DNA of 64,000 nt from an uncultured bacterium (GCA_903854195.1 CAINVO010000021.1:14032-78031), one strand, 5' to 3'. Counted from the stretch's first letter, positions 2,498 to 63,766 are shown. The notes: generated by a model from the letters alone, not told the origin. A program made the numbers and translations.

Positions 2498-2515
2498 AAC
2501 TTAGGAATAAGAAAT

Positions 2516-5212: not shown

Positions 5213-5274
5213 TTGCTTAATTCTAGTACATCTTTTGATATTTAGCCATTTTAATGTATTATTGGCAGATAAAT

Positions 5275-5579: not shown

Positions 5580-6029
5580 CAAATAGGTTAAGAACCAATT
5601 TCCATTAAAGACATACTTTGTCAGTTATAAAACATGTGGCAAAAGATTGCTCTCATTTTTACTCATTTCTAATCAATATTTGTGTAATGTCAATAAGTTG
5701 TTTTGTAAAATAACTTGAATTTAGACATGCGAATCCCCTTCTTTTTAGCCGTAACTTTAACTTAGGGTTGACACTCAAACTGTGGATAACTAGGTGGATA
5801 TGTGTATAAAAGACAGTCTTTTTGTTTGAAAATATGGCCTATATGTTTTTGTCTATTAGTGTAGAAAACGCCTAATTTTAAGGGTTTTTTTGGAAAAAGA
5901 CATGGAAAAAATGATGAATTTATGTTGTAAAAAGAATATGTTTCACGTGAAACTAATATTGACATATTTGCGGTCTAATTATTAAGATTTTATCTATATT
6001 TTAGTTAAAATTAATAGCCTATATGTTAA

Positions 6030-6449
6030 ATGTTAATCATGAAACAAATAAAAAATAGTAAATATTGGGGATTGGTTTGTGAAGAGATCGCAACTAATTA
6101 TTTAAAGAGAAAGGGTTATTGCCTAGTCGAGAGGAACTATTTAAAGAAATGTGGTGAAATTGATATTATTGTAGAGAAGGATGGTTTAATACATTTTGTT
6201 GAAGTAAAAGGTGTTATTCATGAAACAAATCCTAATAATGTTAATCGTGTAACCACTAGAAGCTTTGACTGCCATAGGGTGGAGGATAACCTATCATCTA
6301 GGAAACTTAACAGGCTAAAAAGGACAATTGGTGTTTATTTGTCCGAAAAGGCTACAACAGAAAATTGGTGTTTAGATGCAATCTTGATATATCTAAATCC
6401 TAAAAATCGGTCTGCAAGAGCTGTTTTCATGCCAAACATATTGATTTAG
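6030..6449 (+). CDS. YraN/UPF0102-family endonuclease-like protein (Holliday-junction-resolvase fold) with a C-terminal extension; alternative start at 6039
   Basis: 'WGLVCEEIATNYLKRKGYCLVERNYLKKCGEIDIIVEKDGLIHFVEVKGV' matches the YraN signature (G..GE..A..YL...GY.IL.RN.R...GEIDLI......VFVEVK). Confidence 0.55.
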   Translation: MLIMKQIKNSKYWGLVCEEIATNYLKRKGYCLVERNYLKKCGEIDIIVEKDGLIHFVEVKGVIHETNPNNVNRVTTRSFDCHRVEDNLSSRKLNRLKRTIGVYLSEKATTENWCLDAILIYLNPKNRSARAVFMPNILI

Positions 6450-6587
6450 TATTTTTAAATAATATAAGATTTTTAGTTTTTTAAGATGAGAGTCTTTTGT
6501 GTTTTTTCCTTTGTATATTGTTAATGCTGTGTTATGCTTATCGAACATTAGTTGATAGGTGTCATACTTGATGTTGATAGTTTGTAT

Positions 6588-6660
6588 CGGGGCGTGGTGT
6601 AACGGCTAACATTCCTGTTTTGGGAACAGGCGACTCCGGGTTCGAATCCCGGCGCCCCGA
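6588..6660 (+). tRNA. tRNA-Pro (anticodon TGG), 73 nt, no encoded CCA
   Basis: Acceptor cggggcg/cgccccg; anticodon stem cctgt/acagg with loop ttTGGga; T-arm ccggg-ttcgaat-cccgg. Confidence 0.8.
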
Positions 6661-6703
6661 CATTTATATATTGTTAGTATTAGTTTTCGGTTGAATTATT
6701 AAA

Positions 6704-7024
6704 ATGAAAAAATTTCAAGCAAAAAAAGAGGATTTTACCTGTGAAAAATGTGGAGCCTTTGTTAAGGGGGATGGTTATACAAACCATTGTCCCGTTTGTC
6801 TTTGGAGTAAACATGTAGATGTTAATCCTGGTGATAGAAGTGCAACTTGTGGGGGATTAATGGAGCCTGTTGCTGTTGAGGGTGGGGTAGATGGGTCGCT
6901 TATCCATAAATGTCTCCTGTGCGAACACACTAAAAGAAATAGAATACAAAAAAGAGATGATTTTTCTATGGTAATTGTGTTGTCTGAAAAAATAGCAAAA
7001 AAACTATCAAATCAGGCCAAATAG
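6704..7024 (+). CDS. RNHCP-domain zinc-ribbon protein
   Basis: Contains the 'YTNHCPVC' motif plus C-x2-C pairs (CEKCGAF, CLLCEH), resembling the Pfam RNHCP domain. Recalled from memory, not searched. Confidence 0.45.
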   Translation: MKKFQAKKEDFTCEKCGAFVKGDGYTNHCPVCLWSKHVDVNPGDRSATCGGLMEPVAVEGGVDGSLIHKCLLCEHTKRNRIQKRDDFSMVIVLSEKIAKKLSNQAK

Positions 7025-7065
7025 CTTGAAACAATTAAGAAAGGAGAAGTTCTAGTTGTTGATAA

Positions 7066-8379
7066 CTATCGGGCACTACTCAACAATTTTACAAGATTGG
7101 GCTTTGTACTTAAAGAAAAATGATTCTGAGCAATTTGGTTAGATAAAAAAGTGTTTAAATTATTACCTGTTTCCGAGGTAATTTCGTTGTTTATTTGACC
7201 GATAGATAATCCTTGGATTGTGTATTTTGTGCTTATATTGCTAGATAAAATTGAAGTAACTATCCCAACAAAACCGGCATTGTTTGTTATAGGACTTCCA
7301 GACAAACCTATTTGTCCTATAGTAGAAGGTGAGGATATAAAGGTTCCAATATTAAAGGTACTTTGAATATTTAAATTTTCACTTTGTTGTCCTAGACCAT
7401 TTAGGACCTGTTGATAACTTTTTGACCCTGCTGGGTAACCAGTAATGTTTATCGAGGTTCCACTTTGTAGATTTTGATACTGTCCAGACCCAGGAAGTTT
7501 GTAGTATGTATTTCCAGTTTTTAGGTTTGAAATTGATAATATGGCAAAATCATTTTCACCAGTTTCTAGACATTTAGATGGATCATTTATACACTTGTAG
7601 TTGCTTTCTACCCAAGTTGGAGAAATGTAAATAAGGGTAGGGGAGTTTGAAATTGTTTGCGCGGTAGTCCCTGCCCGTATTGAGCATTTAAGATTTTGAC
7701 CGGATGTAGTACCTACTAATAGGAGGTATTCAGCAACGTGTGCGTTTGTTAGGATATTCCCTTGTTCTGTGATGATTGCTCCACTGCCTGATACCATGGA
7801 TTGGTTGTTTCCAACTTGGTTGGTACATATTATATTAACAGTACTATCAGAAATGTTGCTTGAGGGGTTGAGATTTTGCGTTATTGTTGGATTGGTTGAA
7901 TTACTCTGGGGCAAACTCGTATTGTCTGTTGGCGTGTTTGGCTCAACATTTTTGTAGACCTTGTTAATTAAGGCATCTAATTCTTTAAGGGGATTTGATG
8001 TTGTTGCAGTTGGTTGTGCTGGAATTTTTATTACCGTTTTGCCCTTGTCGGTCTTGTTTGTTGAAGATGAAATATTCTCATTTTGGTTTAAAATTAGTAT
8101 TTTGAAGATACTTGAGTCGTTGTTTTGACTTGGAGCTATTGATTTTTCCAATGCCGATTTTGAAGAAAAATCTGAGCCTAGTAGGGGAAATATAGCATTT
8201 ACTGAAAGATCCCCAAGACCACCCTTTGAAGAGTTTGGTGTGTTGTTTTTTTGGATTGAAGTATTGTCTGTTTGATTCAAATTTATACTAGAAAAGAAAC
8301 TTGCAAAAAAACCAATAGAAATTAGAATATGAATTATACCCTTGCCAATCATAGGTATAATTGTATGGATCGAAGTCAT
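7066..8379 (-). CDS. Membrane-anchored trypsin-like (S1 family) serine protease with long Asn/Ser/Thr-rich low-complexity linkers
   Basis: N-terminal TM 'IHILISIGFFASFF'. Catalytic His in 'GNILTNAHV', Asp in 'GENDFAIL', Ser in 'GLSGSPI' (GDSGGP-like). Confidence 0.6.
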   Translation of the reverse strand: MTSIHTIIPMIGKGIIHILISIGFFASFFSSINLNQTDNTSIQKNNTPNSSKGGLGDLSVNAIFPLLGSDFSSKSALEKSIAPSQNNDSSIFKILILNQNENISSSTNKTDKGKTVIKIPAQPTATTSNPLKELDALINKVYKNVEPNTPTDNTSLPQSNSTNPTITQNLNPSSNISDSTVNIICTNQVGNNQSMVSGSGAIITEQGNILTNAHVAEYLLLVGTTSGQNLKCSIRAGTTAQTISNSPTLIYISPTWVESNYKCINDPSKCLETGENDFAILSISNLKTGNTYYKLPGSGQYQNLQSGTSINITGYPAGSKSYQQVLNGLGQQSENLNIQSTFNIGTFISSPSTIGQIGLSGSPITNNAGFVGIVTSILSSNISTKYTIQGLSIGQINNEITSETGNNLNTFLSNQIAQNHFSLSTKPNLVKLLSSAR

Positions 8380-8423
8380 AGCCTCTAGTATATCAGATAA
8401 ATAAATGATAATATGTCACCACT

Positions 8424-8494
8424 GCGGGATTAGTTTAATGGTAGAATAACAGTTTTCCAAACTGTGGGTGGGAGTTCGATTCTCCCATCCCGCA
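8424..8494 (+). tRNA. tRNA-Gly (anticodon TCC), 71 nt, no encoded CCA
   Basis: Acceptor gcgggat/atcccgc; anticodon stem acagt/actgt with loop ttTCCaa; T-arm gggag-ttcgatt-ctccc. Confidence 0.75.
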
Positions 8495-8534
8495 CAACCA
8501 ACGTCGACGTAAAAGGTCACCCATAATAATTATT

Positions 8535-9386
8535 ATGACAAAATACCTCATAACAGGTGGAGAAGGGTTCATTGGAGGCAGAATTGTGAGAGAAACGGGA
8601 GGAGTATCCTACGATATAAAATCTGGTTCTGATATTCTTGATAAAAAAAGATTAGAAGAAGCAGTTAAGGATGCCTGTGGTATATTTCATTGTGCTGCGA
8701 GGATATCTGTTCCTGAAAGTGTTTCTAAACCTGATGAATATTATAAGACCAATGTAGAAGGGACACGATCAGTGTTTGATGTTGCCGAGTCAATCAAGCT
8801 AAAAATAGTTTTTTCAAGCAGCGCTGCTGTATACGGTGATACTACTGTCGCAGTTGGAGAAGAATCTGCAATTAATCCGAAGTCTCCGTATGCTCAAAAT
8901 AAAGTGGACGGGGAAAATATATTGAAAGACTCTTTGTTGCCACACATTGCGTTGCGTTATTTTAATATATACGGTCCAGGCCAATCGTCCCAGTATGCCG
9001 GAGTAATCACCTCTTTTATAGAAAATGCTCTACATGATAATGATTTGATTATCTATGGAGATGGGAGTCAAGTCAGGGATTTTGTTTTTGTGAGTGACAT
9101 CGCTAGAGCAAATGTGATGGCAATGGAGCGTAATAATGTTTCTTTTGAAGTATATAATATAGGGAGTGGAACAGAGACTTCCATAAAAGAATTGGCAGAA
9201 ATGATACTCCGACTAACAGGTTCGACAGCAAAGATCATATACAAACAACCTCGGTCTGGCGATATTATTTATTCTAAAGCAGACACTTCTAAGGCTGAGA
9301 GGGTGATGAAATGGAAAGCAGAAGTTTCTTTAGAGGAGGGTTTGTTGGAAACGATCTCATTTTATAAAGGTTTGATGAAAAAATAA
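8535..9386 (+). CDS. NAD-dependent epimerase/dehydratase (extended SDR), short form (283 aa)
   Basis: Rossmann 'ITGGEGFIGGRIV'; catalytic 'YAQNK' (YxxxK); epimerase-like C-terminus. Confidence 0.7.
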   Translation: MTKYLITGGEGFIGGRIVRETGGVSYDIKSGSDILDKKRLEEAVKDACGIFHCAARISVPESVSKPDEYYKTNVEGTRSVFDVAESIKLKIVFSSSAAVYGDTTVAVGEESAINPKSPYAQNKVDGENILKDSLLPHIALRYFNIYGPGQSSQYAGVITSFIENALHDNDLIIYGDGSQVRDFVFVSDIARANVMAMERNNVSFEVYNIGSGTETSIKELAEMILRLTGSTAKIIYKQPRSGDIIYSKADTSKAERVMKWKAEVSLEEGLLETISFYKGLMKK

Positions 9387-9961: not shown

Positions 9962-11515
9962 TTATCTTGCAAATTCTATTGCTCTATTTTCTCGGATAAC
10001 AGTTACTTTTATTTCACCTGGATATTTTAAATCATGCTCTATTTTTAGAGCAATTTCACGGGCTAAATCATGAGCTTGTAAATCAGAAATTTCACTGGGT
10101 CTGACAAATACCCTTATTTCTCGGCCTGCTTGGAGTGCATAAGATTTTTCAATACCTGGAAAACCGTTTGCGATTGCTTCAAGATCCCCAAGTCTTTTTA
10201 GATAGTTTTCAACGCTATCGCTACGAGCTCCAGGACGTCCTCCAGAAATAGCGTCAGCTGTTTGGACGATAATTGATTCAACTGTTTCGTATGGGTACTC
10301 TTCGTGATGTGCCTGCATAGCTTTTATGACTTCTTCACTCGTTCCAAATTTTTGCAGGATTCTTCGTCCGATTTCAACATGACTACCTTGAACTTCATGG
10401 TCTAGAGCCTTACCAATGTCGTGTAAAAGAGCGCCTGCTTTTGCTACAAGTACATTTGCGCCAAGCTCCTCAGCAATCATTCCAGCAAGGTGTGCCATTT
10501 CAACAGAGTGCTGGAGTACATTTTGTCCATAACTTGTTCTAAAATATAAACGTCCAAGAATAGATACAACTCTAGGGTCTAGATTAAGAACACCTGTTTC
10601 ATATACAGCTTGTTCTCCTTTCTCTTTTATTATTTTATTGATTTCATTTTTAGCATTTTCAACTTCCTTTTCTATTTTTGCAGGTTGAATACGTCCATCT
10701 GCAATTAAAGCTTCAAGTGCTACGCGTGCGACTTGTCTTCGTATCGGATCAAAAGATGAAATTGTGATTGATCCGGGTGTGTCATCTACAATAATCTCTA
10801 CCCCAGTTTCACGCTCAAATGCCTTAATGTTTCGGCCTTCTTTTCCAATAATTTTTCCTTTTATTTCATTTGACTCAATAACTATATGGGTTGTAAAAAC
10901 ATCCGCAGTAACTGCATTTGCAAGTCGCTGAATAGATGTAGCTAGAATTTCACGAGCTTTTGTTTCAAGCTTTTCCTCACCGTTCATTTCAAGTTTTTTT
11001 AAACGAATTAAGATATCTTCTTCGTTTTCTTTTTCAACCGTTCGTATAAGTTCATTTTTTGCTTCTTCTGTTGAAAGACCAGCTATTCGTGAAAGCTCCG
11101 TCTTTTTGTCTAACTCCAATTTATCAGCCCTCTCTTTTATTGCCTTTATTTCCTCTATGCGTTGCTTGATTAATTCAACCTCCTTATCTATGTCAGTTTG
11201 TCTATGATCCAAAAGCTCCTCTTTTTTTATAAGGCGGTCTTCTGTTTTCTTTATTTTTTCTTCCTTATCCTTTGATTCTTCTCTGACTGTTTTTAATATT
11301 TCTGCTGCCTGACCCTCGGCATCAAGTGTGATTTTCTTGGCCGTCTCTTTTGCTTCAACTTCCATTTGCTTAACCTCAAGCTCAATAGAACCCTTTTTGC
11401 CGAGCGCTATTATCCAACGAAGCATGTAACCACCGACTAGACCAATACTGCCAGTTAAGGCAATAGTGACTAGTAATATTGTTAATGAAAAAACCATGGC
11501 GATTTGTTCGCTCAA
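9962..11515 (-). CDS. rny: Ribonuclease Y
   Basis: N-terminal TM, a long coiled coil, a KH domain ('IIGKEGRNIKAFERETGVEIIVDD') and an HD domain ('LLHDIGKALDHE'). Confidence 0.85.
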   Translation of the reverse strand: MSEQIAMVFSLTILLVTIALTGSIGLVGGYMLRWIIALGKKGSIELEVKQMEVEAKETAKKITLDAEGQAAEILKTVREESKDKEEKIKKTEDRLIKKEELLDHRQTDIDKEVELIKQRIEEIKAIKERADKLELDKKTELSRIAGLSTEEAKNELIRTVEKENEEDILIRLKKLEMNGEEKLETKAREILATSIQRLANAVTADVFTTHIVIESNEIKGKIIGKEGRNIKAFERETGVEIIVDDTPGSITISSFDPIRRQVARVALEALIADGRIQPAKIEKEVENAKNEINKIIKEKGEQAVYETGVLNLDPRVVSILGRLYFRTSYGQNVLQHSVEMAHLAGMIAEELGANVLVAKAGALLHDIGKALDHEVQGSHVEIGRRILQKFGTSEEVIKAMQAHHEEYPYETVESIIVQTADAISGGRPGARSDSVENYLKRLGDLEAIANGFPGIEKSYALQAGREIRVFVRPSEISDLQAHDLAREIALKIEHDLKYPGEIKVTVIRENRAIEFAR

Positions 11516-11764
11516 TGGACAAAGCTAATTAGCTTGAAAAATTTTAAAAATTGAAACTTTTAGTAACATACTTAACTAAATTTTCTAATCTAACTAATCT
11601 AAGTCTCGCGCCCGACGGATTTTAGGATAAGGAAATCTTTGTTTGCTGTCTTGTAGGGAAAAACGGTATCAATCTTTGCGGTTTGTCTGAATGGGCAGAG
11701 CGGAATAATTAATAAATGATAATAATCCTATCTTACAAGAGATTTTTGATTTTGTAAAGTTAAT

Positions 11765-53254: not shown

Positions 53255-54532
53255 ATGAACACTTTTTTCCAAAAACTTAAGCTGGTGTTCCAAGACAAGA
53301 GTCTTAGAAACCGTGTTATCTTCATGCTCGCTTCACTAGTAGTGTTTCGTTTATTGGCAGTTATTCCTATCCCTGGTGTTGATATTGGAAAGCTTCAGGC
53401 TTTTTTTAACAGCAACCAGTTTTTTGGTTTACTTAATATTTTTTCAGGAGGTGGACTGTCAACTCTGTCTATCGTAATGCTTGGAGTTGGTCCATATATC
53501 ACTGCATCTATTATTATGCAGCTTTTGACAATGATGTCTCCGTCTCTAAAAGCTATGTATCAAGAGGATGGGGAAGCTGGACGTAAAAAATTCAGTCAGT
53601 ACTCAAGACTTTTGACTGTGCCTCTAGCTTTGATCCAGGGCTTTGGTTTTATTATTTTGTTAGAGCGTCAAGGAGTTCTTGGAACACTTGGAGGTATGTC
53701 TTTGATTACAAGTGTTATCTCAATTGTAGCTGGATCAGTACTTCTAATGTGGTTAGGTGAACTTATGACAGAGTTTGGAATCGGAAATGGTGTGTCTATG
53801 ATTATTTTCTCAGGTATCGTTTCTCGTATTCCAACAGCTCTTAGTCAACTTGCTTACAGTTACACTCCAGCTCAAATTCCTTTGTATGTTGGAATCGTGA
53901 TTGTTGCCCTAGCTGTCATTTTCCTAGTAGTTGTCATTACAGAAGCAGAGAGACCAATTCCTGTTACATATGCAAAGCAGGTACGTGGAAACAAGGTGTA
54001 TGGAGGTGTTTCAACTTATCTTCCTTTACGTCTAAATCAGGCTGGAGTTATTCCAATAATCTTCGCTTTGTCTATTCTTCTCTTTCCTCAAATGATTTTT
54101 AATGTTTTGAGTCATGTTGGTAATGCTACTGTAAACGCAATTTCAAAAAATATTCTAGATATTATTGCTAATCAATGGGTATATGCTATTGCTTATTTTG
54201 TACTTGTTTTCTTGTTTACATATTTCTACACTGCAGTAACTTTTGATCCACATCAGATCTCAACAAACCTACAACGTGGAGGTGCTTTTATTCCAGGTAT
54301 TCGTCCAGGTGATTCTACTTCAGAGTATCTTTCAAAGGTTGTGACTCGTATCACACTTGTAGGTGCGGTATTTCTAGGAGCTATCGCTGTTCTTCCAGTT
54401 ATCCTTCCTTTGCTTTTCGTAGGTATTCCAAAGTCTATGGCGGTTGGAGGTACAGCCGTACTTATCGTGGTATCAGTAGTATTGGATCTTGTTAAAAAGA
54501 TTGACGCTCAGGTTTCGATGAGAGAGTATTAA
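53255..54532 (+). CDS. secY: Preprotein translocase subunit SecY
   Basis: Ten TM helices with 'LGVGPYITASIIMQLL' and 'GTGVSMIIFSGIVS'-type motifs. Confidence 0.9.
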   Translation: MNTFFQKLKLVFQDKSLRNRVIFMLASLVVFRLLAVIPIPGVDIGKLQAFFNSNQFFGLLNIFSGGGLSTLSIVMLGVGPYITASIIMQLLTMMSPSLKAMYQEDGEAGRKKFSQYSRLLTVPLALIQGFGFIILLERQGVLGTLGGMSLITSVISIVAGSVLLMWLGELMTEFGIGNGVSMIIFSGIVSRIPTALSQLAYSYTPAQIPLYVGIVIVALAVIFLVVVITEAERPIPVTYAKQVRGNKVYGGVSTYLPLRLNQAGVIPIIFALSILLFPQMIFNVLSHVGNATVNAISKNILDIIANQWVYAIAYFVLVFLFTYFYTAVTFDPHQISTNLQRGGAFIPGIRPGDSTSEYLSKVVTRITLVGAVFLGAIAVLPVILPLLFVGIPKSMAVGGTAVLIVVSVVLDLVKKIDAQVSMREY

Positions 54533-54541
54533 AACACAAAT

Positions 54542-54579
54542 AAAAAAACGCCGGAACAATTGTTCCGGCGTTTTTTTTA
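54542..54579. terminator. Bidirectional rho-independent terminator after secY
   Basis: aaaaaaa-CGCCGGAACAATTGTTCCGGCG-tttttttt. Perfect 11-bp palindrome. Confidence 0.7.
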
Positions 54580-54587
54580 TTTGAACA

Positions 54588-55376
54588 CTACTCAGTGGCT
54601 GTTTTCCAAGCCAAACCAAAAATCATTTTCATCATGCCGTGAATGATTTCATCTTCGATGATGACACCGATGACATTTTCCTTGCCTAGTTTTGTTATGG
54701 ACACTTTATTTTTTCCATAGATTGTGAGTTCTGCTTCATACGGAAAGATTTCTTTAGAAACAAATTTTATCACAGGCCATATGTTTTTGCTGGTACCAGC
54801 AAAAACCGCTTCGTTGTAACCTCGTGCAGCTTTTGTATCAGGTATAATTGCTCGAGTGGTGATGCCGATTCTCTCTTTGCCTTTAATAAACTCACGAAGT
54901 TTGCCAGTAGGGAGGTAGTTTTGAAATTTCTCAGCATTTGAAAAAGCAAGCATTTCATATTTTTCATTTCCAGAAATCATATCCATACAAATATCGTAGA
55001 CAGCATCAGGTCCTTCAAAGTAAAGCACACGTGGTTTGTTTGTTGTAAGATTAAATAACCCCTCAAGTTCTGGAATTAATTTCTTTGCTTTATCCATCTG
55101 ATCTTCGGCTATTCGGACTTTGTCTTTTGCATAACGCATCAGTTTTTCTGGCTTATCTACCTGATAGTAAAGCTTATTCTTCTTTTCAATCTCATTTACT
55201 AGGCCTTTTATTGTCAGATCCAGAAGCACTTTGTAGACAGTGGTCCTTTTGAGCTTGGTTATTTCAGCTATTTTAGAAGGGAAGGCACCGCCAAGCTCTA
55301 CCAAAGCAGCGTATATAAGTGCCTCTTTTTCTGAAAGACCAGCATTTTGGATTTGTTTAGATAGTTTGTTTTCCAT
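54588..55376 (-). CDS. TrmB-family transcriptional regulator
   Basis: N-terminal wHTH 'LSEKEALIYAALVELGGAFPSKIAEITKLKRTTVYKVLLDLTIKGLV' is typical of TrmB. Confidence 0.7.
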   Translation of the reverse strand: MENKLSKQIQNAGLSEKEALIYAALVELGGAFPSKIAEITKLKRTTVYKVLLDLTIKGLVNEIEKKNKLYYQVDKPEKLMRYAKDKVRIAEDQMDKAKKLIPELEGLFNLTTNKPRVLYFEGPDAVYDICMDMISGNEKYEMLAFSNAEKFQNYLPTGKLREFIKGKERIGITTRAIIPDTKAARGYNEAVFAGTSKNIWPVIKFVSKEIFPYEAELTIYGKNKVSITKLGKENVIGVIIEDEIIHGMMKMIFGLAWKTATE

Positions 55377-55571
55377 ATGTATGTGATTTATATAGCTAAA
55401 TTGTACTAAATACCATGGATATTGTCAATTTAAACGGACAAAATATTTAAAACTAGAAATAATGTCTTATTTAAAGGCATTATTGTGTAATATTTTGACA
55501 TATATAATGCACATATTTAAAATATGTTGTATAATATCGTTATAAATTAATTATTAAGATTTAGTAAAAAA

Positions 55572-56666
55572 ATGAATAAAATTACAAAAGCAATTTTGGC
55601 CATAGTAGCTATCGCGTTAATCGTTTGGGGTATAGTGGCTATAGTAGAAAAGCCGTCCACTTCATCAACAAAGGCAACTGTTAAGATTGGTCTAGTTCTG
55701 CCAATGACAGGAAATGCCGGTTTCTTGGGTGAGTCTGCACAAAATGCTGCAGAGCTCGCTCTCAAAGATGCCGGTGTTACAAAGAATGACTATAAGCTGG
55801 TATTCGAAGATGACTCCTTTGATCCAGTAAAAACAGTAACAGCTGTAAACAAAATGATCAGTGTTGATCATGTAAGTTCTATCGTTACTTTTGGATCAGG
55901 TACAAGTAACGCAGCTAGTCCCATTACTGAGGCAAATAAAATTCCTCACTTTGGTCTAGCTTCTGATCCAACATCAGCAAAAGGTGATTATAACTATATT
56001 CACTGGACACCTCCGTTTAAAGAAGGTCAGCTTCTAGCGCAGGAGCTGGTTCGCAGAGGATATAAGAGCGTATCTATTATAGGTACAAATCATCCTGGAA
56101 CTTTGGCAGTAACAGATTCTTTAAGGCAGGCTCTTCAGGGAACCGATGTGAAAATAGTTTCTTATGATTTAACAAATGTTGGTGATAAAGATTTCAAAAC
56201 TGTCATCAATAAAGTGAAAACTGCAAATCCAGACATCATCGTCTTGGAACAGTTTTCACCCGAAATTGAAATCACCGCAAAACAAATCAAAGAGCTTGGT
56301 ATTAAGACACCGGTTACTTCTGTAGAAACATTTGCATGGAGTAATCAGATAGGTTTATTTGAAGGGGATTGGTTTGTTGCAGATGCAAAAGTTTCACCGG
56401 CATTTGTTGCGGAGTACAAAGCTGCTTATGGTAAAAATCCAGCACCAGGTGCATCATATATATATGATTTAGTGACATTATTAGTGAATATACAGGAAAA
56501 GTCAGACAAACCAATTGCGGCAGCAGATATTCCTACAGTTCTAAATCAAATGGGCTCATACAACTCAGCACTATTTGGAAACGTGGCAATCGATAAAGAT
56601 GGATTTTTCATCACTGATGCTTCGGTACAGATCATTAAGGATGGTAAGGCAGAGATGGTGAACTAA
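55572..56666 (+). CDS. ABC-transporter substrate-binding protein, Leu/Ile/Val-binding (LivJ/K, Peripla_BP_6) family; membrane-anchored
   Basis: N-terminal anchor, then 'KIGLVLPMTGNAGFLGESAQNAAELALKDAG...YKLVFEDD' (LIVBP signature). Confidence 0.75.
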   Translation: MNKITKAILAIVAIALIVWGIVAIVEKPSTSSTKATVKIGLVLPMTGNAGFLGESAQNAAELALKDAGVTKNDYKLVFEDDSFDPVKTVTAVNKMISVDHVSSIVTFGSGTSNAASPITEANKIPHFGLASDPTSAKGDYNYIHWTPPFKEGQLLAQELVRRGYKSVSIIGTNHPGTLAVTDSLRQALQGTDVKIVSYDLTNVGDKDFKTVINKVKTANPDIIVLEQFSPEIEITAKQIKELGIKTPVTSVETFAWSNQIGLFEGDWFVADAKVSPAFVAEYKAAYGKNPAPGASYIYDLVTLLVNIQEKSDKPIAAADIPTVLNQMGSYNSALFGNVAIDKDGFFITDASVQIIKDGKAEMVN

Positions 56667-56726
56667 TTAAACAGTAGGCAAAAACAAAAAAGCATTAGCG
56701 AAATACTCGCTAATGCTTTTTTGTTT

Positions 56727-57461
56727 TTACAAACTCTCCCACAATATCTCAAATATAGATCTGAATACGTCTACCATTGGGGGGATAGCGATGACTACAC
56801 ATAGAGCATCTACTTCAGGGCCCACAATTACAATTTTATCGTTGTAAATATCGATAGTACTTTTGAACTTGTACTTTTCTGGCATGTATTTATATTCACG
56901 GAGGAGAGATGTGTCGTTTTGACCTTCTTCACCCATTGAGTCACCAGACAAAAGTAGTTTTACTCGAGTGCTATTTTCCGCTCGCTTTTTTCTGAAGTCT
57001 AGAAAGAAATCACGATCAGTGTTTAACCAAGTCGAAGCACTTCCAATAATGTAATATTCTTTATTTTTGTATTCACTTAGGATTTCATCATAGAAAAGTT
57101 TAAGTTCATCTTTTGATTTGATGAATCTCACACCGTAAATACTCTTGTCGGTTTTGGCTAAGCCCTCTAGATAGGGGATTATTTTATTAAAAGACTTAAT
57201 CTTTCTTTCAAAAAGAGTGCCTAGTTGTTGTGGTTTAACAGGATAAAAGAGTTTTTTACCTCCTTGTTCATAGACAGTGACTATTCCTTGGGAGATGAGT
57301 CTTTCGAGGATTGGATAGACCGTGGTCCTCTTTATATTTACTTCGCTAGCCAAAGATGTAGCGCTGCAGCCACCAGTTTTTAAAAGGCCTACATAAAGGT
57401 CTATTTCTTGCTCAGAAAGTCCCAAATCCTTCAATATATCTAGATAGTTATTAGTATTCAT
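56727..57461 (-). CDS. TrmB-family transcriptional regulator (second copy, paralog of 54588..55376)
   Basis: 'LSEQEIDLYVGLLKTGGCSATSLASEVNIKRTTVYPILERLISQGIV'. Confidence 0.7.
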   Translation of the reverse strand: MNTNNYLDILKDLGLSEQEIDLYVGLLKTGGCSATSLASEVNIKRTTVYPILERLISQGIVTVYEQGGKKLFYPVKPQQLGTLFERKIKSFNKIIPYLEGLAKTDKSIYGVRFIKSKDELKLFYDEILSEYKNKEYYIIGSASTWLNTDRDFFLDFRKKRAENSTRVKLLLSGDSMGEEGQNDTSLLREYKYMPEKYKFKSTIDIYNDKIVIVGPEVDALCVVIAIPPMVDVFRSIFEILWESL

Positions 57462-57547
57462 GTTGTTATTTTTTTACGACAGCTTACCTAAATATAGTAT
57501 ATCAGGCTAAAAATAAAGTCAATACCAGCTATACTTGTCTAAAATAG

Positions 57548-57576
57548 TTGACAATAGGCTAAGAATAGTATATAAT
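57548..57576 (+). promoter_or_regulatory. Consensus sigma-70 promoter for the second binding-protein gene
   Basis: TTGACA-17 nt-TATAAT, exact consensus, 41 nt upstream of the 57618 ATG. Confidence 0.55.
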
Positions 57577-57617
57577 GAACGTATTAAAATATTATAAATA
57601 AATCAAATAAGAAATTC

Positions 57618-58739
57618 ATGACTAAAACAAATAAAATAATCATATGGGTCATAGCCATTCTAGCTGTAGTTGCCATAGCATTTGTGTTGAGCACACATAA
57701 AGCTTCTGCAGATAAAGTAGAGATTGGGGCATTGTTCCCATTAACTGGAGGCCTAGCTTCATATGGAGAGCCTGCCCAGAAATCTGCACAATTAGCCGTT
57801 GATGAAATAAATGCAGCGGGTGGTATAAACGGGAAACATCTCGAAATCAATTTCCAAGATCATAAATGTGATCCAAAACTAGCAGTGACTGCATATCAGA
57901 GTTTGCATAGCCAAGGTGTTAAAACTTACCTTGAAGTGGCATGTAGTGGCGCAGTACTCAGTGTTGCTCCACAGCTTAATGACTCAGTCCTTCTAGTGTC
58001 AGCGGCTACATCTCCAAAGATTAGTAAGGTTTCTCCTTATGTCTTTAGAAACTATGCTTCAGATGATAACGAGTCGAAACTTTTTGCAGACCAAATCATC
58101 AAGAGTGGATATAAAAATGTTGGTGTAATATTTGAAGAAACAGATTATGCAAAAGGACTTGAAGTTGACCTAGAAAAATATTTAGCAGGATCTGGAGTAA
58201 ATGTTATCGCTGAAGGGTTTACAGCAAATTCTACAGATGTAAAGACACAAGTATCTAAAATCAAATCAGATAAGGTGGATGCGGTGTTTGTAAGTGTACA
58301 GACTGTCACAACAGGGGATGTAGTACTTGGAGAAATAGAAAAGCAGGGATACAAACCAGCAAATCTAATTGTGAATGAAAATATTCTAAAATCTTCGCAA
58401 CTTCTTTCAAAGTACTCAAACCTTCTTGAAGGTGCAACAAGTGCGGACTACATAACAAATGACAATCCGGCTCTTACAAAAATGCTCGATGCTTACAAAG
58501 CGAAATACGGTGTTGATTGTCCTCAGAAAAACATTTGTGCCACAGTGTACGACAACGTATATATCCTGGCTGAAGCTATAAAGACAAATGGATATGATGC
58601 AAATGCAATCAAAACATATCTAGCTAGCTCAACGTACAATGGTTCCAGCGGAACAATCGGCTTTGACCAAAACAATGACAGAAGCAATGCAAACTATACA
58701 TTGTTTAAAATAGAGGGATGGAAGGTGGTGGTGAAATAG
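57618..58739 (+). CDS. ABC-transporter substrate-binding protein, LivJ/K family (second paralog)
   Basis: 'EIGALFPLTGGLASYGEPAQKSAQLAVDEINAAGGINGKHLEINFQDHKCDP'. Confidence 0.75.
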   Translation: MTKTNKIIIWVIAILAVVAIAFVLSTHKASADKVEIGALFPLTGGLASYGEPAQKSAQLAVDEINAAGGINGKHLEINFQDHKCDPKLAVTAYQSLHSQGVKTYLEVACSGAVLSVAPQLNDSVLLVSAATSPKISKVSPYVFRNYASDDNESKLFADQIIKSGYKNVGVIFEETDYAKGLEVDLEKYLAGSGVNVIAEGFTANSTDVKTQVSKIKSDKVDAVFVSVQTVTTGDVVLGEIEKQGYKPANLIVNENILKSSQLLSKYSNLLEGATSADYITNDNPALTKMLDAYKAKYGVDCPQKNICATVYDNVYILAEAIKTNGYDANAIKTYLASSTYNGSSGTIGFDQNNDRSNANYTLFKIEGWKVVVK

Positions 58740-58825
58740 ATAATTAATTAATAAATTACCAAACAGAAAGCCCTAATCATAGGGCTTTTGTGTTAAAATA
58801 TTGCTAATATATTCAGAAATAATTT

Positions 58826-59692
58826 ATGGACATTATTCCTCAACTCGTTGCTAATAGTATTATTGCCGGAGCTTTTTATGCGCTTATTGCCCTTGGTTTC
58901 AATCTCATTTATGGCACTACAAAGTTTTTCAATTTAACTCATGGTGTCATTGCTGCAATTGGAGGGTATACCGTTTTCTTTTTAACTACAACTTTCGGCT
59001 GGAATATTTATGCATCAGCTGTTGTGGGAGTGTTCGTGGCAGGGCTTGTCGGATACCTTCTTGAGAAATCACTCTACAAACAACTACGAAAAAGAAAAGC
59101 ATCACAGATGGTCTTCTTGGTGGCTTCACTCGGGGCATTTACCGCACTGCAGGCGGTCATTGCCATTATTTTCTCTAGTCAGTTTCAGACTTTATCTATT
59201 GGCTCATGGGACTTGCAAACATTTAACATTTTTGGAGGCATTATCACGGTAGTACAGTTGGTGACTTTGGTTTCAGCTATCGTTATCATGATTGTTCTCG
59301 GAATTGTTATGAGATGGACAATGTTTGGTAAAGCGGTGGAGGCAATCAGCGATGAAGAAGAAGTGGCAAAGGTGGTAGGTATTCACACAAACAAAATAAT
59401 AGGTCGAGTATTTTTCATCGGGTCCGCGATTGCAGGCCTTGCTGGTATTTTGATCGGTCTTGATACAGGACTCGAGCCAACAATGGGAATGGGGCTTTTG
59501 CTCAAAGGGGTGATTGCTTCTATTATCGGAGGCATCGGAAATGTATATGGGGGAGTGCTCGGTGCATTCTTACTTGGGTTTATAGAAAACTTTGGTATTT
59601 GGAAAATATCAGGGGAGTGGAAGGATGCGATTGCTTTTGGTGTACTTATTATTTTTCTGCTATTTCGCCCACAAGGTATTTTAAGAAAATAG
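58826..59692 (+). CDS. livH: Branched-chain amino acid ABC transporter permease, LivH family
   Basis: Polytopic membrane protein with 'GYLLEKSLYKQLRKRK' and a C-terminal 'GVLLGALLLGFIEN'-type motif. Confidence 0.75.
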   Translation: MDIIPQLVANSIIAGAFYALIALGFNLIYGTTKFFNLTHGVIAAIGGYTVFFLTTTFGWNIYASAVVGVFVAGLVGYLLEKSLYKQLRKRKASQMVFLVASLGAFTALQAVIAIIFSSQFQTLSIGSWDLQTFNIFGGIITVVQLVTLVSAIVIMIVLGIVMRWTMFGKAVEAISDEEEVAKVVGIHTNKIIGRVFFIGSAIAGLAGILIGLDTGLEPTMGMGLLLKGVIASIIGGIGNVYGGVLGAFLLGFIENFGIWKISGEWKDAIAFGVLIIFLLFRPQGILRK

Positions 59693-59719
59693 AGATGAGG
59701 AATTTGCAATAATAAAAAC

Positions 59720-60586
59720 ATGGAATATTTAATACACTTAGGAATACTCTTTACAATCTACGCGGGACTTGCAGTGAGTCTCAATCTTATTGTGGGGTAC
59801 ACAGGGCTCTTGTCTGTTACCCAAGCAGCATTTTATGGAATCGGCGCATATACTACTGCGATATTGATGACAGATCACGGTGTGAACTTTTTCCTTTCCA
59901 TTTTGATCGGTATTTTGGTGTCGGGGCTAGTTTCACTTTTTATAGGTTGGATATTAAGCAGATTTAAAGATGACTATTATGCTCTGGTGTCGTTTGGTTT
60001 CAACATTATTGTTTATAGTATTTTTCTAAACTGGCAGAGCTTAACTCGTGGCCCGCTTGGTATTCCTGGTATCAACAAACCTGAACTTTTCGGAATAGAT
60101 TTTTCTCGAAATATTAATTTCTTGATTTTGACCGTGATAATAATGGCTGCAATCTATGGCGTGTGTGCTTTTATAGTGCACTCATCTTTTGGCCGAGTAC
60201 TTAAAGCTATTCGTGAAGATGAGAAAGCTATCAGCATCTTCGGATACAATACATCTACATATAAACTTGTGATTTTTGTAATCTCAGCAAGTATTGCTGC
60301 AGTTTGTGGATCACTTTTTGCAAGCTACATTACTTTTATTGACCCATCTACTTTTAGTTTGAACGAATCTATTTTTATACTCGCTATGATTATCCTTGGC
60401 GGTCTTGCGAACCTTCGCGGCTCATTACTTGGCGCTTTGTTTTTGATTTTGCTTCCAGAGATTTTACGTTTTGTAGGTTTTCCAACTGATGTTGCCGCAC
60501 AAATGCGAGAGTTGGTTTATGGATTGATCTTGGTTTTACTCATGTTGTATAGACCACAGGGGATATTGGGGGAGTATAAGTTATAA
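59720..60586 (+). CDS. livM: Branched-chain amino acid ABC transporter permease, LivM family
   Basis: 'GYTGLLSVTQAAFYGIGAYTTAIL' is typical of LivM. Confidence 0.75.
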   Translation: MEYLIHLGILFTIYAGLAVSLNLIVGYTGLLSVTQAAFYGIGAYTTAILMTDHGVNFFLSILIGILVSGLVSLFIGWILSRFKDDYYALVSFGFNIIVYSIFLNWQSLTRGPLGIPGINKPELFGIDFSRNINFLILTVIIMAAIYGVCAFIVHSSFGRVLKAIREDEKAISIFGYNTSTYKLVIFVISASIAAVCGSLFASYITFIDPSTFSLNESIFILAMIILGGLANLRGSLLGALFLILLPEILRFVGFPTDVAAQMRELVYGLILVLLMLYRPQGILGEYKL

Positions 60587-60593
60587 TAAAATT

Positions 60594-61346
60594 ATGCCTA
60601 TACTACAGACAAAAAAACTAACAAAGAAATTCGGAGGCATCAGTGCTTTGAATAATCTTTCTATAGAGTTTGAAGCTGGAAAAATTACTGGAGTGATTGG
60701 TCCTAATGGATCTGGTAAGTCTACCTTGGTAAATGTTTTGACCGGTCTTTTGCCGATAACTTCAGGCAGGATTATTATTGCAGACTCTACTAGTCTCAAA
60801 AAAATAGCAGCCCATGAAATGCCATCTTTTGGTATCACTAGGACTTTTCAGGAAGTACGACTTCTTGAGCAGATGACGGTGCTCGACAACATCTTGGTTG
60901 TAATTACAAAGAGAAATGTTATCGGTGCTTTGTTTGAAAAACATAAAACTCATTATCTTAAAATTGCAGAAAATGTTTTGGAAAGATTAGGTTTGTGGGC
61001 AAAGAGAGGCGAGCTCGCAGTCAACCTGTCATATGGACAAAGAAAACTTTTGGAAATTGCTCGAGTGCTTGCCATGACTGAGGCTGAGTCTACAGATGTA
61101 AAAATATTTTTCTTTGACGAGCCATTCGCAGGTCTTTTTCCTGAAATGGTAAAGCTCGTGGTGTCTGTGATGAAAGACTTGAAACAAAAAGGTAAGACCC
61201 TGGTGCTCATTGAACACAATATGGATTTGATCCGTGAACTTTCAGATAAGGTGATTGTGATGGATAGTGGAGAATTGCTAGCAGAAGGATTGCCTGAGGA
61301 GGTGCTATCCAGAAGAGATGTGATAGAGGCGTATTTGGGGGAGTAA
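60594..61346 (+). CDS. livG: ABC transporter ATP-binding protein, LivG family
   Basis: Walker A 'GPNGSGKST', signature 'LSYGQRKLLEIAR', Walker B 'FFDEP'. Confidence 0.8.
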   Translation: MPILQTKKLTKKFGGISALNNLSIEFEAGKITGVIGPNGSGKSTLVNVLTGLLPITSGRIIIADSTSLKKIAAHEMPSFGITRTFQEVRLLEQMTVLDNILVVITKRNVIGALFEKHKTHYLKIAENVLERLGLWAKRGELAVNLSYGQRKLLEIARVLAMTEAESTDVKIFFFDEPFAGLFPEMVKLVVSVMKDLKQKGKTLVLIEHNMDLIRELSDKVIVMDSGELLAEGLPEEVLSRRDVIEAYLGE

Positions 61347-61384
61347 ATAATTTTAAAAAACTTTTAAATAAAATAAATTATAAA

Positions 61385-62131
61385 ATGTCTACCGACCTCA
61401 ACAAACAAAAAGAAATAATGCTAGAGCTCAGAAATATTCACGTGCACTACGGTGGGGTCAAAGCTCTGGATGGATTTTCTGCACAAATAGATGAAGGGGA
61501 GATAGTGGCTTTTATGGGCCCAAACGGGGCAGGAAAGTCTACAGCTTTAAAAAGTATATTTGGTCTCGTACCTATGTCAGAAGGGGAAATTGTTTGGAGG
61601 GGTAACAAAATCAATAATCCAAAACCACATGAAATGGTTCCACTTGGTATATCTTTTGTGACACAAGGTAAGAGGGTTTTTAAACATCTCACCGTGAAAG
61701 AAAATTTGGAAATCGGAGGTTTCGGACTAAATAATAAATCTCTTTTAAAGGAAAGAATAAAGGAGGTACTTGAACTTTTTCCAGCTCTCGTGCCAAAGAT
61801 CAAACAAAAAGCTGGTCAGCTTTCGGGAGGACAACAGCAAATGGTAGCTATAGCTAGAGGGCTCATTACTGATCCTCGTTTACTTTTGCTTGATGAGCCG
61901 TCTCTTGGCCTAGCACCAAAAGTAGTCAAAGAAGTTTTTGAAAAAATTCAAGAAATAAATCAAAAAAGAAATACTGCAATCATTGTGGTGGAGCATAATC
62001 TCAAATCACTTTTACCTATTGTACATCGAGCCTATGTTTTGGATAAGGGAAAAATGGTCAAACATGGTGAGCCAGATGAACTAATGAAAACTAAGATTTT
62101 AGAAAAGGTGTTTTTAGGCGCACTTATCTAA
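61385..62131 (+). CDS. livF: ABC transporter ATP-binding protein, LivF family
   Basis: Walker A 'GPNGAGKST', signature 'LSGGQQQMVAIARGL', Walker B 'LLLDEPSLGL'. Confidence 0.8.
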   Translation: MSTDLNKQKEIMLELRNIHVHYGGVKALDGFSAQIDEGEIVAFMGPNGAGKSTALKSIFGLVPMSEGEIVWRGNKINNPKPHEMVPLGISFVTQGKRVFKHLTVKENLEIGGFGLNNKSLLKERIKEVLELFPALVPKIKQKAGQLSGGQQQMVAIARGLITDPRLLLLDEPSLGLAPKVVKEVFEKIQEINQKRNTAIIVVEHNLKSLLPIVHRAYVLDKGKMVKHGEPDELMKTKILEKVFLGALI

Positions 62132-62207
62132 TTTTCTGTCTTTACTAAAATAACTCGACTTAGCATTATCTAGTACCATTTTTTCGTGTTTTCTGTATAA
62201 TGGCCTC

Positions 62208-62927
62208 ATGAATTCGTCAACAGACAATATCTCCGCTGGTCAAAGCACCGGTTTCAAAAAGGAGCCGTTAACCTTTATTTTTATTGGTAGATCAGGATGT
62301 GGTAAGGGTACCCAGATTGATCTTCTGACTAAGTTTATAAAAAACGAAGAAATTAAATCTGCCAAAAATATAGAAGATGAAACTGGTTTTGCCCCAGAAC
62401 CAAGAGAAATTTTTGCTTTGGAAACAGGCGAGAGTTTTCGTCACTTTCTAGATAATACTGGAAAATATGGCAACACCCCTCAAACTGCCACCCAAAAAAT
62501 TGCTAGTGATGTATATAGTTCAGGTGCAAGACAGCCAGATTTTTTGGCAATATGGATGTGGGCAGATGCAATGGTGGAAAAATTTAACTTAGACAGTCAT
62601 TTGATTGTTGACGGAAGTCCTAGATCATTAGACGAAGCAAAAATTCTTGACACTGCTATAAAATTTTATAAAAGGGAAAATCCTTTTGTTGTGTATCTTA
62701 ATGTTTCGCAGGAATGGTCACGTAAACATTTACTTTCCCGAGGCCGTGAAGATGATATTGATATTGCTATGATTCAAAAACGTCTTGATTGGTACCAGAA
62801 AGATGTTATCCCTGCAGTTGATTTTTTTAAAGATAATGATGGGTATAATTTTTTGCAAATAAATGGTGAGCAGCCAATAGAAAAAGTTCACAGAGATTTA
62901 ATTAATGAGATTTTGGCTAGAGCTTAA
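62208..62927 (+). CDS. adk: Adenylate kinase-like nucleoside-monophosphate kinase (divergent, with a ~40-aa insert)
   Basis: P-loop 'GRSGCGKGTQ', 'VDGSPRSLDEA' (DGFPR-like), 'RGREDDIDIAMIQKRLDWYQK' (R..DD....KRL..Y). It sits in the secY-adk-map position. Confidence 0.6.
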   Translation: MNSSTDNISAGQSTGFKKEPLTFIFIGRSGCGKGTQIDLLTKFIKNEEIKSAKNIEDETGFAPEPREIFALETGESFRHFLDNTGKYGNTPQTATQKIASDVYSSGARQPDFLAIWMWADAMVEKFNLDSHLIVDGSPRSLDEAKILDTAIKFYKRENPFVVYLNVSQEWSRKHLLSRGREDDIDIAMIQKRLDWYQKDVIPAVDFFKDNDGYNFLQINGEQPIEKVHRDLINEILARA

Positions 62928-62956: not shown

Positions 62957-63766
62957 ATGATCACTATAAAAAAAGAGGAGGATATAGTTAGATTGAGAAA
63001 AGCAGGTAAAATTTTGGCTGCTATGCTTGTTGAGCTATCAAAAAAAACATTACCTGGCGTCAGCACTCTTGATATTGATAATTATACAAATGAGCTTTGT
63101 AAAAAATACGGAGTAGTTCCTGTTTTTTTAAATTATAAACCGTATGGAGCTTCTAGACCTTTTCCAGCAAGTATTTGTGTCTCAATAAATGATGAAATTG
63201 TTCACGGTATCCCAAATGAAACTCCACGTACTTTTAAGGAAGGGGATATCGTTTCATTGGATATGGGTGTTTCCTATGAAGGTATGATAGTTGATAGTGC
63301 CACCACAGTTGGTGTTGGTAAAATAGATGAGGCAGCTCAGAGATTACTTGATACAACACGCGGGTCGTTGAAGGCTGGCATAAAAGCTGCTGTTTCTGGA
63401 AGCCGCACAGGAGATATTGGTTTTGCTGTTGAAGATTTTGTAAATAATGAATCAAAAATTTTTGCAGAAAAAACTGGTTTAAAAAAGATTAAACCATTTG
63501 GTATTGCAGAAAATTTAGGTGGGCACGGAGTGGGGTATGAAGTACACGAAGATCCATTTGTACCAAATTTTGGAAAAAAGAATCAAGGGCCAATTTTAAA
63601 ACCTGGTATGGTGATTGCGATTGAACCAATGTTAAATGAAGGAACCGATCGGATTATGATTGGTCGTGATGGTTGGGTTTACCAAACACTCGACGGTAAA
63701 CGCAGTGCACATTTTGAACACACAGTTCTAATAACCGACAAAGGTCCTGAAATTCTTACCGCATAA
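62957..63766 (+). CDS. map: Methionine aminopeptidase type I
   Basis: Metal ligands occur in 'SLDMGVSYEGMIVDSATT', 'GHGVGYEVHEDP' and 'IAIEPML...FEHTVLIT'. Confidence 0.85.
   Translation: MITIKKEEDIVRLRKAGKILAAMLVELSKKTLPGVSTLDIDNYTNELCKKYGVVPVFLNYKPYGASRPFPASICVSINDEIVHGIPNETPRTFKEGDIVSLDMGVSYEGMIVDSATTVGVGKIDEAAQRLLDTTRGSLKAGIKAAVSGSRTGDIGFAVEDFVNNESKIFAEKTGLKKIKPFGIAENLGGHGVGYEVHEDPFVPNFGKKNQGPILKPGMVIAIEPMLNEGTDRIMIGRDGWVYQTLDGKRSAHFEHTVLITDKGPEILTA

Follow-up and report, generated by a model that had tools for sequence, protein, structure and literature searches.

The pairing of a TrmB regulator with an ATP-binding cassette (ABC) importer is the founding example of the TrmB family, and local regulators transcribed divergently from transporter genes are commonplace. 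In the TrmB/TM ABC transporter operon of Thermococcus litoralis and Pyrococcus furiosus, TrmB represses the binding-protein gene malE via a palindrome at its promoter (PMC4158304). Here we describe a 7.6-kb island between secY and adk in a 64,000-nucleotide stretch of DNA from an uncultured bacterium (GCA_903854195.1, CAINVO010000021.1:14032-78031; the whole stretch is called the window below, and positions are counted from its first letter). The island holds two TrmB-like regulator genes, each divergent from a gene for a Liv-type substrate-binding protein (SBP), and one livHMGF permease/ATPase set. Its likeness to the TrmB/TM operon lies in a PF01978 regulator encoded with an ABC importer, in the proposed repression of a binding-protein gene via a promoter palindrome, in the recognition tyrosine, and in a PLD-like fold that follows a coiled coil (PMC4158304). 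The differences are that the host is bacterial (Patescibacteria), with promoters of the sigma-70 type; that the regulators have 244-262 aa and no sugar-binding C-terminal subdomain, whereas TrmB has 338 aa; that the predicted operator is TTGTC-N10-GACAA rather than TrmB's TACTN3AGTA; that the binding protein paired with the regulator is of Liv type (cluster B), not of MalE type; and that there is one regulator per binding protein, in cassettes that form arrays.

A second relative is TrmBL2 (TK0471/PF0496), an archaeal chromatin protein and global repressor that shares the length class and the two-domain architecture of the window regulators. TrmBL2 is an abundant chromosomal protein with broad binding to coding and intergenic DNA (PMC3031468, PMC4158304), whereas the sites predicted here are specific, located in promoters and tied to one neighbouring gene; the sequence identity is ~18%. 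On the transporter side, the likeness is to E. coli LIV-I (livJ, livK-HMGF), where two Peripla_BP_6 paralogues go with one LivH/LivM/LivG/LivF set. Of the two SBP genes there, one is monocistronic and the second leads the permease operon, and the window appears to be arranged in the same way, with SBP1 monocistronic and SBP2 at the head of the permease genes. E. coli LIV-I is under the global regulator Lrp, not under a dedicated regulator for each binding protein.

Full-text searches found no paper that combines TrmB with Patescibacteria or the candidate phyla radiation (CPR), and none describing such arrays. What appears to be new is a bacterial short-form TrmB family that is largely devoted to Liv-type SBPs, with one regulator per SBP; arrays of two to six pairs that share a permease; and a defined operator with a 72-bp two-site geometry.

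The regulator/binding-protein pair as a conserved cassette

Mapping of open reading frames (ORFs), with Pfam and NCBIfam scans, gives the gene order secY, two divergent TrmB-like/SBP units, livHMGF, adk and map, which reproduces exactly the layout in a first-pass annotation of this DNA. The genes of the two units and of the importer are these:

54588-55376, minus strand: TrmB-like 1, 262 aa, class 1 (PF01978, 54.5 bits; ortholog in scaffold L082, 49% identical)
55572-56666, plus strand: SBP1, Peripla_BP_6, Liv-type (PF13458, 142 bits)
56727-57461, minus strand: TrmB-like 2, 244 aa, class 2 (PF01978, 56.4 bits)
57618-58739, plus strand: SBP2, Peripla_BP_6, Liv-type (PF13458, 177 bits)
58826-59692, plus strand: livH-like permease (PF02653, 134 bits)
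59720-60586, plus strand: livM-like permease (PF02653, 161 bits)
60594-61346, plus strand: livG-like ATPase (ABC_tran plus BCA_ABC_TP_C)
61385-62131, plus strand: livF-like ATPase (ABC_tran)

Both pairs have orthologs elsewhere. On L082, a 354-kb metagenomic scaffold, five tandem SBP/TrmB divergent pairs lie beside livM. Window pair 2 is orthologous to L082 pair d (regulator 66%, SBP 73% identical) and window pair 1 to pair e (49% and 57%, respectively), and the relative order of the two orthologous pairs is the same in the window and in L082. In all fetched loci together, 31 of 35 Liv-type SBP ORFs are divergent from a TrmB-like gene with a gap of <400 bp. The similarities of regulators and of SBPs co-vary (Mantel r = 0.93, 0 of 5000 permutations, 23 non-redundant pairs), and the large clusters of the two coincide exactly. 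Most loci were found through homologs of TrmB-like 2 (the TrmB2 family), and the sample from the SBP side comprises two bacterial contigs. One of these (L167, 522 kb) has six SBP genes around livH-livM, four of them TrmB-paired, while the other (L168, 25 kb) has six tandem TrmB/SBP pairs. The window livM is itself 67-75% identical to genes that adjoin cassette arrays in L082, L088 and L113.

The one-to-one pairing noticed in the first-pass annotation thus extends to a conserved unit. A recent duplication of the two window modules was considered and rejected: the SBPs are 26% identical, the regulators are 36% identical over the first 100 aa only, and each pair is closer to its orthologs elsewhere. 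By these comparisons the modules are old paralogues. It is probable, jointly with the explanation developed below, that the regulator and binding-protein pair is an evolutionary cassette that duplicates and diverges as a unit in Patescibacteria.

Some of the loci have other contents. A seventh TrmB-like gene of L168 (1031-5128 region) is divergent from an NMT1/OpuAC-type ABC importer (binding protein, ATPase and BPD_transp_1 permease), so that the regulator family is not restricted to Liv-type systems. The permease set next to the L082 array (10926-11696) consists of livM and then a gene for a 256-aa protein without a Pfam match, and L088 (2964-4683) has livM-livG-livF with no recognisable livH and with a response-regulator-domain gene in the gap. 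SBPs and livHMGF without a TrmB-like partner are found in L169 (GCA_019323575.1, a DPANN metagenome-assembled genome labelled Woesearchaeota archaeon), where region 1-9343 has an SBP1 homolog (43% identical) within a cluster of four SBP genes plus livHMGF, beside an RFC-like AAA gene. A 308-aa gene that is divergent from an SBP gene in L169 was rejected as a cryptic TrmB, having an AbrB-like N-terminus and no TrmB profile match. The L169 cluster could be a case of CPR-DPANN transporter exchange, or of mis-binning.

Predicted promoters and a shared operator

The two divergent intergenic regions contain the following predicted elements:

55400-55428, minus strand: TrmB1 promoter, TTGACA-17-TACAAT (11/12 consensus match, nothing beyond consensus)
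55422-55441: operator, perfect palindrome TTGTCAATTTAAACGGACAA, overlapping the -35 of the TrmB1 promoter
55495-55523, plus strand: SBP1 promoter, TTGACA-17-TAAAAT (11/12 consensus match)
55495-55514: weak operator-like site (7/10) over the SBP1 -35, 73 bp from the strong site
57463-57482: operator O2 (8/10), CTGTCGTAAAAAAATAACAA on the TrmB2 strand, directly upstream of the TrmB2 ATG and downstream of its -10
57494-57522, minus strand: TrmB2 promoter, TTGACT-17-TACTAT, between O1 and O2
57535-57554: operator O1, perfect palindrome TTGTCTAAAATAGTTGACAA, overlapping the SBP2 -35 and exactly 72 bp from O2
57548-57576, plus strand: SBP2 promoter, exact consensus TTGACA-17-TATAAT

The exact-consensus promoter that had been assigned to SBP2 is indeed there, and is the sole exact match in the 64 kb (expected 0.02). 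Perfect TTGTC-N10-GACAA sites occur twice in the window (expected 0.12), one in each divergent intergenic region, and each sits over a predicted -35 box (that of TrmB1 in region 1, that of SBP2 in region 2); at one mismatch, just one more site appears. We take TTGTC-N10-GACAA to be the predicted operator shared by both modules. It accounts for the TTGACAA/TTGTCAA symmetry half-seen earlier in 55377-55571 and 57462-57617, which is real, while the AGTATA...TATACT symmetry seen with it corresponds to -10-like elements of the divergent promoters and not to a conserved palindrome.

The sites are conserved between orthologs and enriched in the family. Orthologous intergenic regions of the pair-2 type align into four conserved blocks, namely the SBP -10/-35, an inverted repeat of 20 bp (TTGTCAA-N6-TTrACAA) that takes in the SBP -35, the TTGACT/TAyrAT promoter of the regulator, and a second inverted repeat (cTGTCGTAAA..A.TrACAA) that abuts the regulator start codon. 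For pair 1, the block at 55422-55441 is conserved in the class-1 intergenic regions of L082 and L168. The 7/10 site of region 1 is insignificant alone (267 such sites in the window) and gains weight only from its spacing, as the class-1 orthologs in L082 (pair e) and L168 have 8/10 to 10/10 sites at both positions, 72 bp apart. Upstream of TrmB2-family genes (77 regions), the density of sites scoring 9/10 or better is 3.46 per kb, ~180-fold above the background of 0.019 per kb measured over 1.29 Mb from related Paceibacteria. They cluster at -21 to -27 and at ~-93, and the spacing of 72 bp is exact in 15 of 26 site pairs. Other cassette classes have TGTC...GACA palindromes with N7 or N9 spacing, and the overall pattern suggests that operators diverged alongside the paralogues. 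The ligand-specific control of two binding proteins that was first proposed is weakened in its strict form, because the same operator core in both intergenic regions makes cross-regulation possible.

TTGTC-N10-GACAA sites in the two-site layout also occur at the loci of more distant TrmB2-family members (43-55% identity), whose divergent neighbour is a non-SBP operon that encodes a SufS-like class-V pyridoxal phosphate enzyme, an S-adenosylmethionine (SAM) methyltransferase and a B12-binding radical-SAM enzyme (L101, L112, L115, L119, L124, L127, L134, L140, L143, L144, L149, L153 and L162). The idea, drawn from the SufS-like neighbour, that TrmB2 senses cysteine or Fe-S status is weakened by the continuation of this operon with the methyltransferase and radical-SAM genes, not with suf genes.

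Two other elements of region 1 were noted. The 17-bp perfect palindrome ACATATTTAAAATATGT (55511-55527), which lies over the SBP1 -10, was rejected as a second operator type since it is not conserved in orthologs. Class-1 intergenic regions share a conserved block, CTTTAAATAAG(G)C, in the stretch that separates the two promoters (window 55455-55480, plus strand, '...aataatgtcttatttaaaggcatt...'; also in L082, L168 and L167), and similar AAATAAGG strings occur in other cassette classes. A UP element and a second factor's site are possibilities for this block.

A short, TrmBL2-like form of TrmB

Both regulators match the PF01978 winged helix above its cut-off (25.6 bits), as do all 35 of the 35 family members scanned. 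The recognition tyrosine, which is Y50 in TrmB (PMC4158304, Table 1), is invariant as Y49 in one family alignment (A1) and as Y48 in another (A3), in both cases within a KRTTVY motif. Beyond their first 100 aa the two window regulators are not readily compared directly; by profile, TrmB-like 1 has full-length homology to the TrmB2 family (hhalign probability 99.9, 248 columns). The C-terminal domains are strongly conserved within a class and barely alignable between classes.

An AlphaFold (AF2) model of TrmB-like 2 (pLDDT 88) combines a winged helix with a long helix and a compact alpha/beta domain. Foldseek places it closest to TrmBL2 (E 5e-12, full length) and then to TrmB, with matches to PLD-like nucleases as well. 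The PLD catalytic His is absent from the regulators, and the motif reads K-F-K-S-T-I-D in alignment A1. The sugar-binding subdomain, which forms the last ~70-90 residues of the 338-341-aa TrmB and TrmBL1 and is missing also in TrmBL2 (PMC4158304; PMC3031468), is missing here: the proteins stop at 244 and 262 aa, and the model has no domain beyond the PLD-like one. Pfam Regulator_TrmB (PF11495) matches none of the 35 family members even at E ≤ 1, the NCBIfam equivalogs for TrmB and TrmBL1 give 21-35 bits against cut-offs of 600-650, on the N-terminus only, and the TrmBL2 equivalog (NF041141) gives 17 bits against a cut-off of 530. By DNA-binding domain and predicted fold, the regulators are best described as short, TrmBL2-like two-domain members of the TrmB superfamily and not as sugar-sensing TrmBs. 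The label 'sugar-responsive', which the first-pass annotation carried over from the archaeal proteins, therefore does not transfer.

Nor are TrmB proteins exotic in this lineage, as their description as classically archaeal had implied. TrmB-like 2 has >150 full-length homologs of ~245 aa in many candidate phyla, and a large family is present in Patescibacteria; a profile search of 1.84 billion representatives gave 381 matches at E ≤ 1e-30 and 7,894 at E ≤ 1e-10. Some relatives are longer (P0253, P0256, P0263, P0264 and others; 510-1079 aa), with a single N-terminal winged helix. This is followed by 3-7 tandem PLD-like C-terminal domains of ~135 aa, each closing with F..LWxQ, so that the C-terminal domain is an autonomous, repeatable module. 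HisR, the bacterial histidine repressor, is not a TrmB-family protein; it is of the TrpR family.

Binding proteins and importer

All components of a HAAT/LIV-I system score above their Pfam cut-offs (Peripla_BP_6, two BPD_transp_2 permeases and two ATPases, one with BCA_ABC_TP_C). At the level of NCBIfam equivalogs, all window transporter proteins are below cut-off: the best livG and livF matches are LivG/UrtD and UrtE/LivF, urea (Urt) models score comparably for permeases and ATPases, and the LivJ/LivK equivalog (NF011933) gives 70 and 122 bits for the SBPs where its cut-off is 477. No substrate can therefore be carried over from LIV-I.

Both SBPs have an N-terminal hydrophobic membrane anchor without a lipobox Cys, and SBP1 has >60 homologs at 50-65% identity in Patescibacteria. 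The PDB relatives of SBP2 are amino-acid binders (4gnr, 4n0q, Atu2422 (3ipc) and E. coli LivJ (2liv); E 1e-20 to 1e-25). When ligand residues are mapped onto LivJ, by an alignment at ~25% identity on which the assignments depend, SBP2 and its orthologs keep Y18, C78, S79, A100-A101-T102, D121, Y150 and E226. S79, T102 and E226 are among the residues with which LivJ contacts the alpha-amino and carboxylate groups, and since these contacts are kept, an alpha-amino acid is the likely ligand class of SBP2. The SBP1 class differs at several of these positions (L18, G78, D102, G150 and F202), and other classes differ again, which fits a diversification of ligands.

Transcription units and the borders of the island

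The flanking genes and the predicted transcript ends are these:

53255-54532, plus strand: secY, left border (PF00344, 345.8 bits; TIGR00967, 384 bits, above its cut-off)
54542-54577: bidirectional intrinsic terminator common to secY and TrmB-like 1, perfect 18+18-nt palindrome
56680-56728: bidirectional terminator between SBP1 (plus) and TrmB-like 2 (minus), 29-nt arms, 90% complementary
58762-58794, plus strand: weaker hairpin with a U-rich tail, possible partial terminator (folding energy dG -15.8, z -2.9)
62208-62927, plus strand: adk, right border (Pfam/NCBIfam)
62957-63766, plus strand: map, right border (Pfam/NCBIfam)

The perfect palindromic terminator first noted after secY holds up, with 100% complementary arms (dG -27.4, z -9.1). 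It has A-runs and T-runs on both flanks, and because of these it should end both the secY and the convergent TrmB1 transcripts. The terminator between SBP1 and TrmB2 is of similar predicted stability (dG -28.7, z -9.4). In the gap between SBP2 and livH there is the weak hairpin and no promoter-like site was called between it and livH, so livHMGF is probably read through from the SBP2 promoter, and SBP1 is probably monocistronic. The first-pass annotation had two modules feeding one permease: a single LivHMGF set does follow, but the modules are not equivalent if livHMGF relies on read-through from SBP2. A separate promoter for adk, also claimed there, was not confirmed. Upstream of adk we found a -10-like TATAAT alone, with no promoter-like site called, and 3' of livF there is no terminator hairpin (z 0.24); transcription of adk by read-through from the liv genes is equally possible. 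Control by RNA (T-box or riboswitch) was rejected, since a search of the island against Rfam gave no match.

The position of the island was compared in relatives collected by a SecY scan (one genome per species; 80 loci, SecY 63-72% identical), all 80 of which belong to the Paceibacteria group of Patescibacteria (Zambryskibacteria, Nomurabacteria, Taylorbacteria and others). When all island proteins were searched by tblastn, none had a match in the 10 kb around secY in any of the 80, and adk starts 16-1300 bp after secY in most of them. The view that the island interrupts a conserved secY-adk-map tail is thus borne out, and by this comparison the island is a lineage-specific insertion. Insertion by a mobile element was rejected for the window: none of the island ORFs encodes a recombinase, the flanks lack direct and inverted repeats, and G+C content does not shift.

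In a few relatives the secY-adk or adk-map junction holds other cargo, unrelated to the island: a reverse transcriptase, a bestrophin-like protein with a second adk copy, a Gmad2-domain protein, pairs of ~580-aa proteins without a Pfam match, and a DUF4015 glycosyl hydrolase (L056 11282-12400; L053 11346-13759; L018 11903-12466; L036 5970-9501; L052; L079; L019 12338-13651). The tail of the spc operon appears to be an insertion hot spot in related Paceibacteria. As the junction is permissive to unrelated cargo, the position of the island seems incidental and without evident functional meaning. Orthologous cassettes do lie at unrelated loci in other Patescibacteria. Taken literally, this is one of the outcomes that the first-pass annotation named as a refutation, but it tells against the significance of the location only, not against the module. 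Recombinase genes edge two of the arrays elsewhere (a large serine recombinase in L167, 6420-7706, and a tyrosine integrase in L168, 6701-7747), which hints that in some genomes such arrays may be transferred as islands; the window contains nothing like these recombinases.

Three features of the flanking genes are recorded here. The gene for S5 is followed directly by that for L15 (52125-53227), with no L30 gene between them, and loss of L30 is a known CPR trait. S5 has an N-terminal extension of ~60 residues that is rich in Gly, Arg and Pro. The adk protein is long (239 aa), with an insertion of ~55 residues after the P-loop and a Pfam ADK match limited to residues 93-210, and is 24-50% identical to the adk proteins of the relatives with 63-72% identical SecY.

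Proposed mechanism and alternatives

We consider it probable that the island encodes an amino-acid-type ABC importer of the HAAT/Liv family with two alternative membrane-anchored SBPs, each under its own divergent, autoregulated repressor. The repressor would consist of a winged helix, a coiled coil and a non-catalytic PLD-like domain, and would bind the 20-bp TTGTC-N10-GACAA as a dimer or a dimer of dimers. One site would lie over a -35 box and the second, 72 bp or roughly seven turns of the helix away, on the opposite promoter of the pair, so that a loop bridging the two could turn off both the SBP gene and the regulator gene. Release of the repressor would follow a signal at its C-terminal PLD-like domain, whereupon the consensus-strength promoter would yield SBP2 and, by reading through the weak hairpin, livHMGF. 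SBP1 would be an accessory binding protein for the same permease, on which it docks, and would be made from a monocistronic gene with a switch of its own.

Several observations weigh against this explanation. The promoters and operators are predictions from consensus and comparison, the second site of intergenic region 1 matches at only 7/10, and O1 is centred at ~-39 from the predicted SBP2 start, which is also a class II activator position. The known TrmB sugar-binding subdomain is absent, PF11495 is not detected in any of the 35 family members, and TrmBL2, the closest structural relative, is described without an effector-binding domain (PMC4158304), all of which leaves ligand sensing unsupported. 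The distant family members that face the SufS-like operon and not an SBP have the same C-terminal invariant residues and the same operator layout, which argues against a signal matched to the SBP ligand. The shared N10 operator core means that the two modules may lack insulation, and the loci were ascertained mostly via TrmB2 homologs, with a small SBP-first sample.

Counted from the predicted SBP2 start, O1 reaches from ~-48 to -29, as is typical of class II activators. This could mean that the TrmB-like proteins act as activators, or in a dual role, recruiting RNA polymerase to the SBP promoters from ~-39 while repressing their own genes; TrmB-family members can be repressor, activator or both (PMC4158304). 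We judge this quite unlikely: the SBP2 promoter is exact consensus and that of SBP1 is 11/12, so activation is unneeded, and it is the -35 hexamer itself that the operator covers. Three points favour repression: the target promoters match the consensus fully or nearly so, the operator covers the -35 box, and the archetype TrmB, which still serves as a reasonable functional analogy, represses malE. A repressor need not respond to a ligand, and the regulators might instead be TrmBL2-like architectural or autoregulated repressors that set a fixed low expression or follow a global cue, with the pairing due to co-duplication only. Such a role would agree with the best structural match (TrmBL2), with the lack of the sugar-binding subdomain, with the failure to detect PF11495, with the same family and operator layout on a non-transport operon, and with the operator core common to both modules. 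However, the operators are specific and not genome-wide, and the C-terminal domains are class-specific, with regulator classes that co-vary with SBP classes whose pocket residues differ, which is the pattern expected for matched specificities. Ligand-independent repression is thus, in our estimate, unlikely.

The function of the SBPs themselves could be other than uptake. Up to six SBP paralogues per array, far above the permease sets present, an apparently membrane-anchored, extracellular location, and an SBP gene that adjoins a Ser/Thr kinase gene in L169 would all be compatible with surface sensors or host-contact proteins of an episymbiont, the arrays being switchable surface variants. But SBP genes adjoin Liv-type permease/ATPase genes in the window, L088, L113, L167 and L169, and SBP2 keeps the amino-acid contact residues, and we regard this role as very improbable. 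That the adjacency of TrmB-like and SBP genes is a coincidence with no functional link draws on the general caution that neighbourhood is not function; set against orthologous pairs conserved across contigs, a Mantel r of 0.93 and operators over the promoters, it is hardly credible. A bolder version of the repressor scheme holds that each PLD-domain regulator has co-evolved to sense the metabolite of its partner SBP, or an intracellular proxy for it, and that from two to at least six cassettes share a permease and an operator grammar, in which TGTC...GACA palindromes have a spacing set by the class and two sites lie 72 bp apart. We offer this only tentatively, and think it rather doubtful.

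Significance

Patescibacteria (CPR) account for a large part of the diversity of bacteria and are unable to make most amino acids, and to our knowledge almost nothing is known about their gene regulation. The locus is a lead to an entire family of local regulators, numbering 381 representative clusters at E ≤ 1e-30, for which an operator is predicted, the geometry of the two sites is fixed and the targets are nutrient SBPs; this offers a route to infer the nutrient preferences of unculturable organisms from their genomes. It would extend the TrmB paradigm from archaeal sugar uptake to bacterial amino-acid-type uptake, in a protein form without the known sensor subdomain. If the cassettes do match sensing to binding, they would represent an undescribed, lineage-wide strategy by which ultra-small auxotrophic symbionts select host-derived nutrients, and the first ligand-sensing role of the PLD-like domain alone in a TrmB protein.

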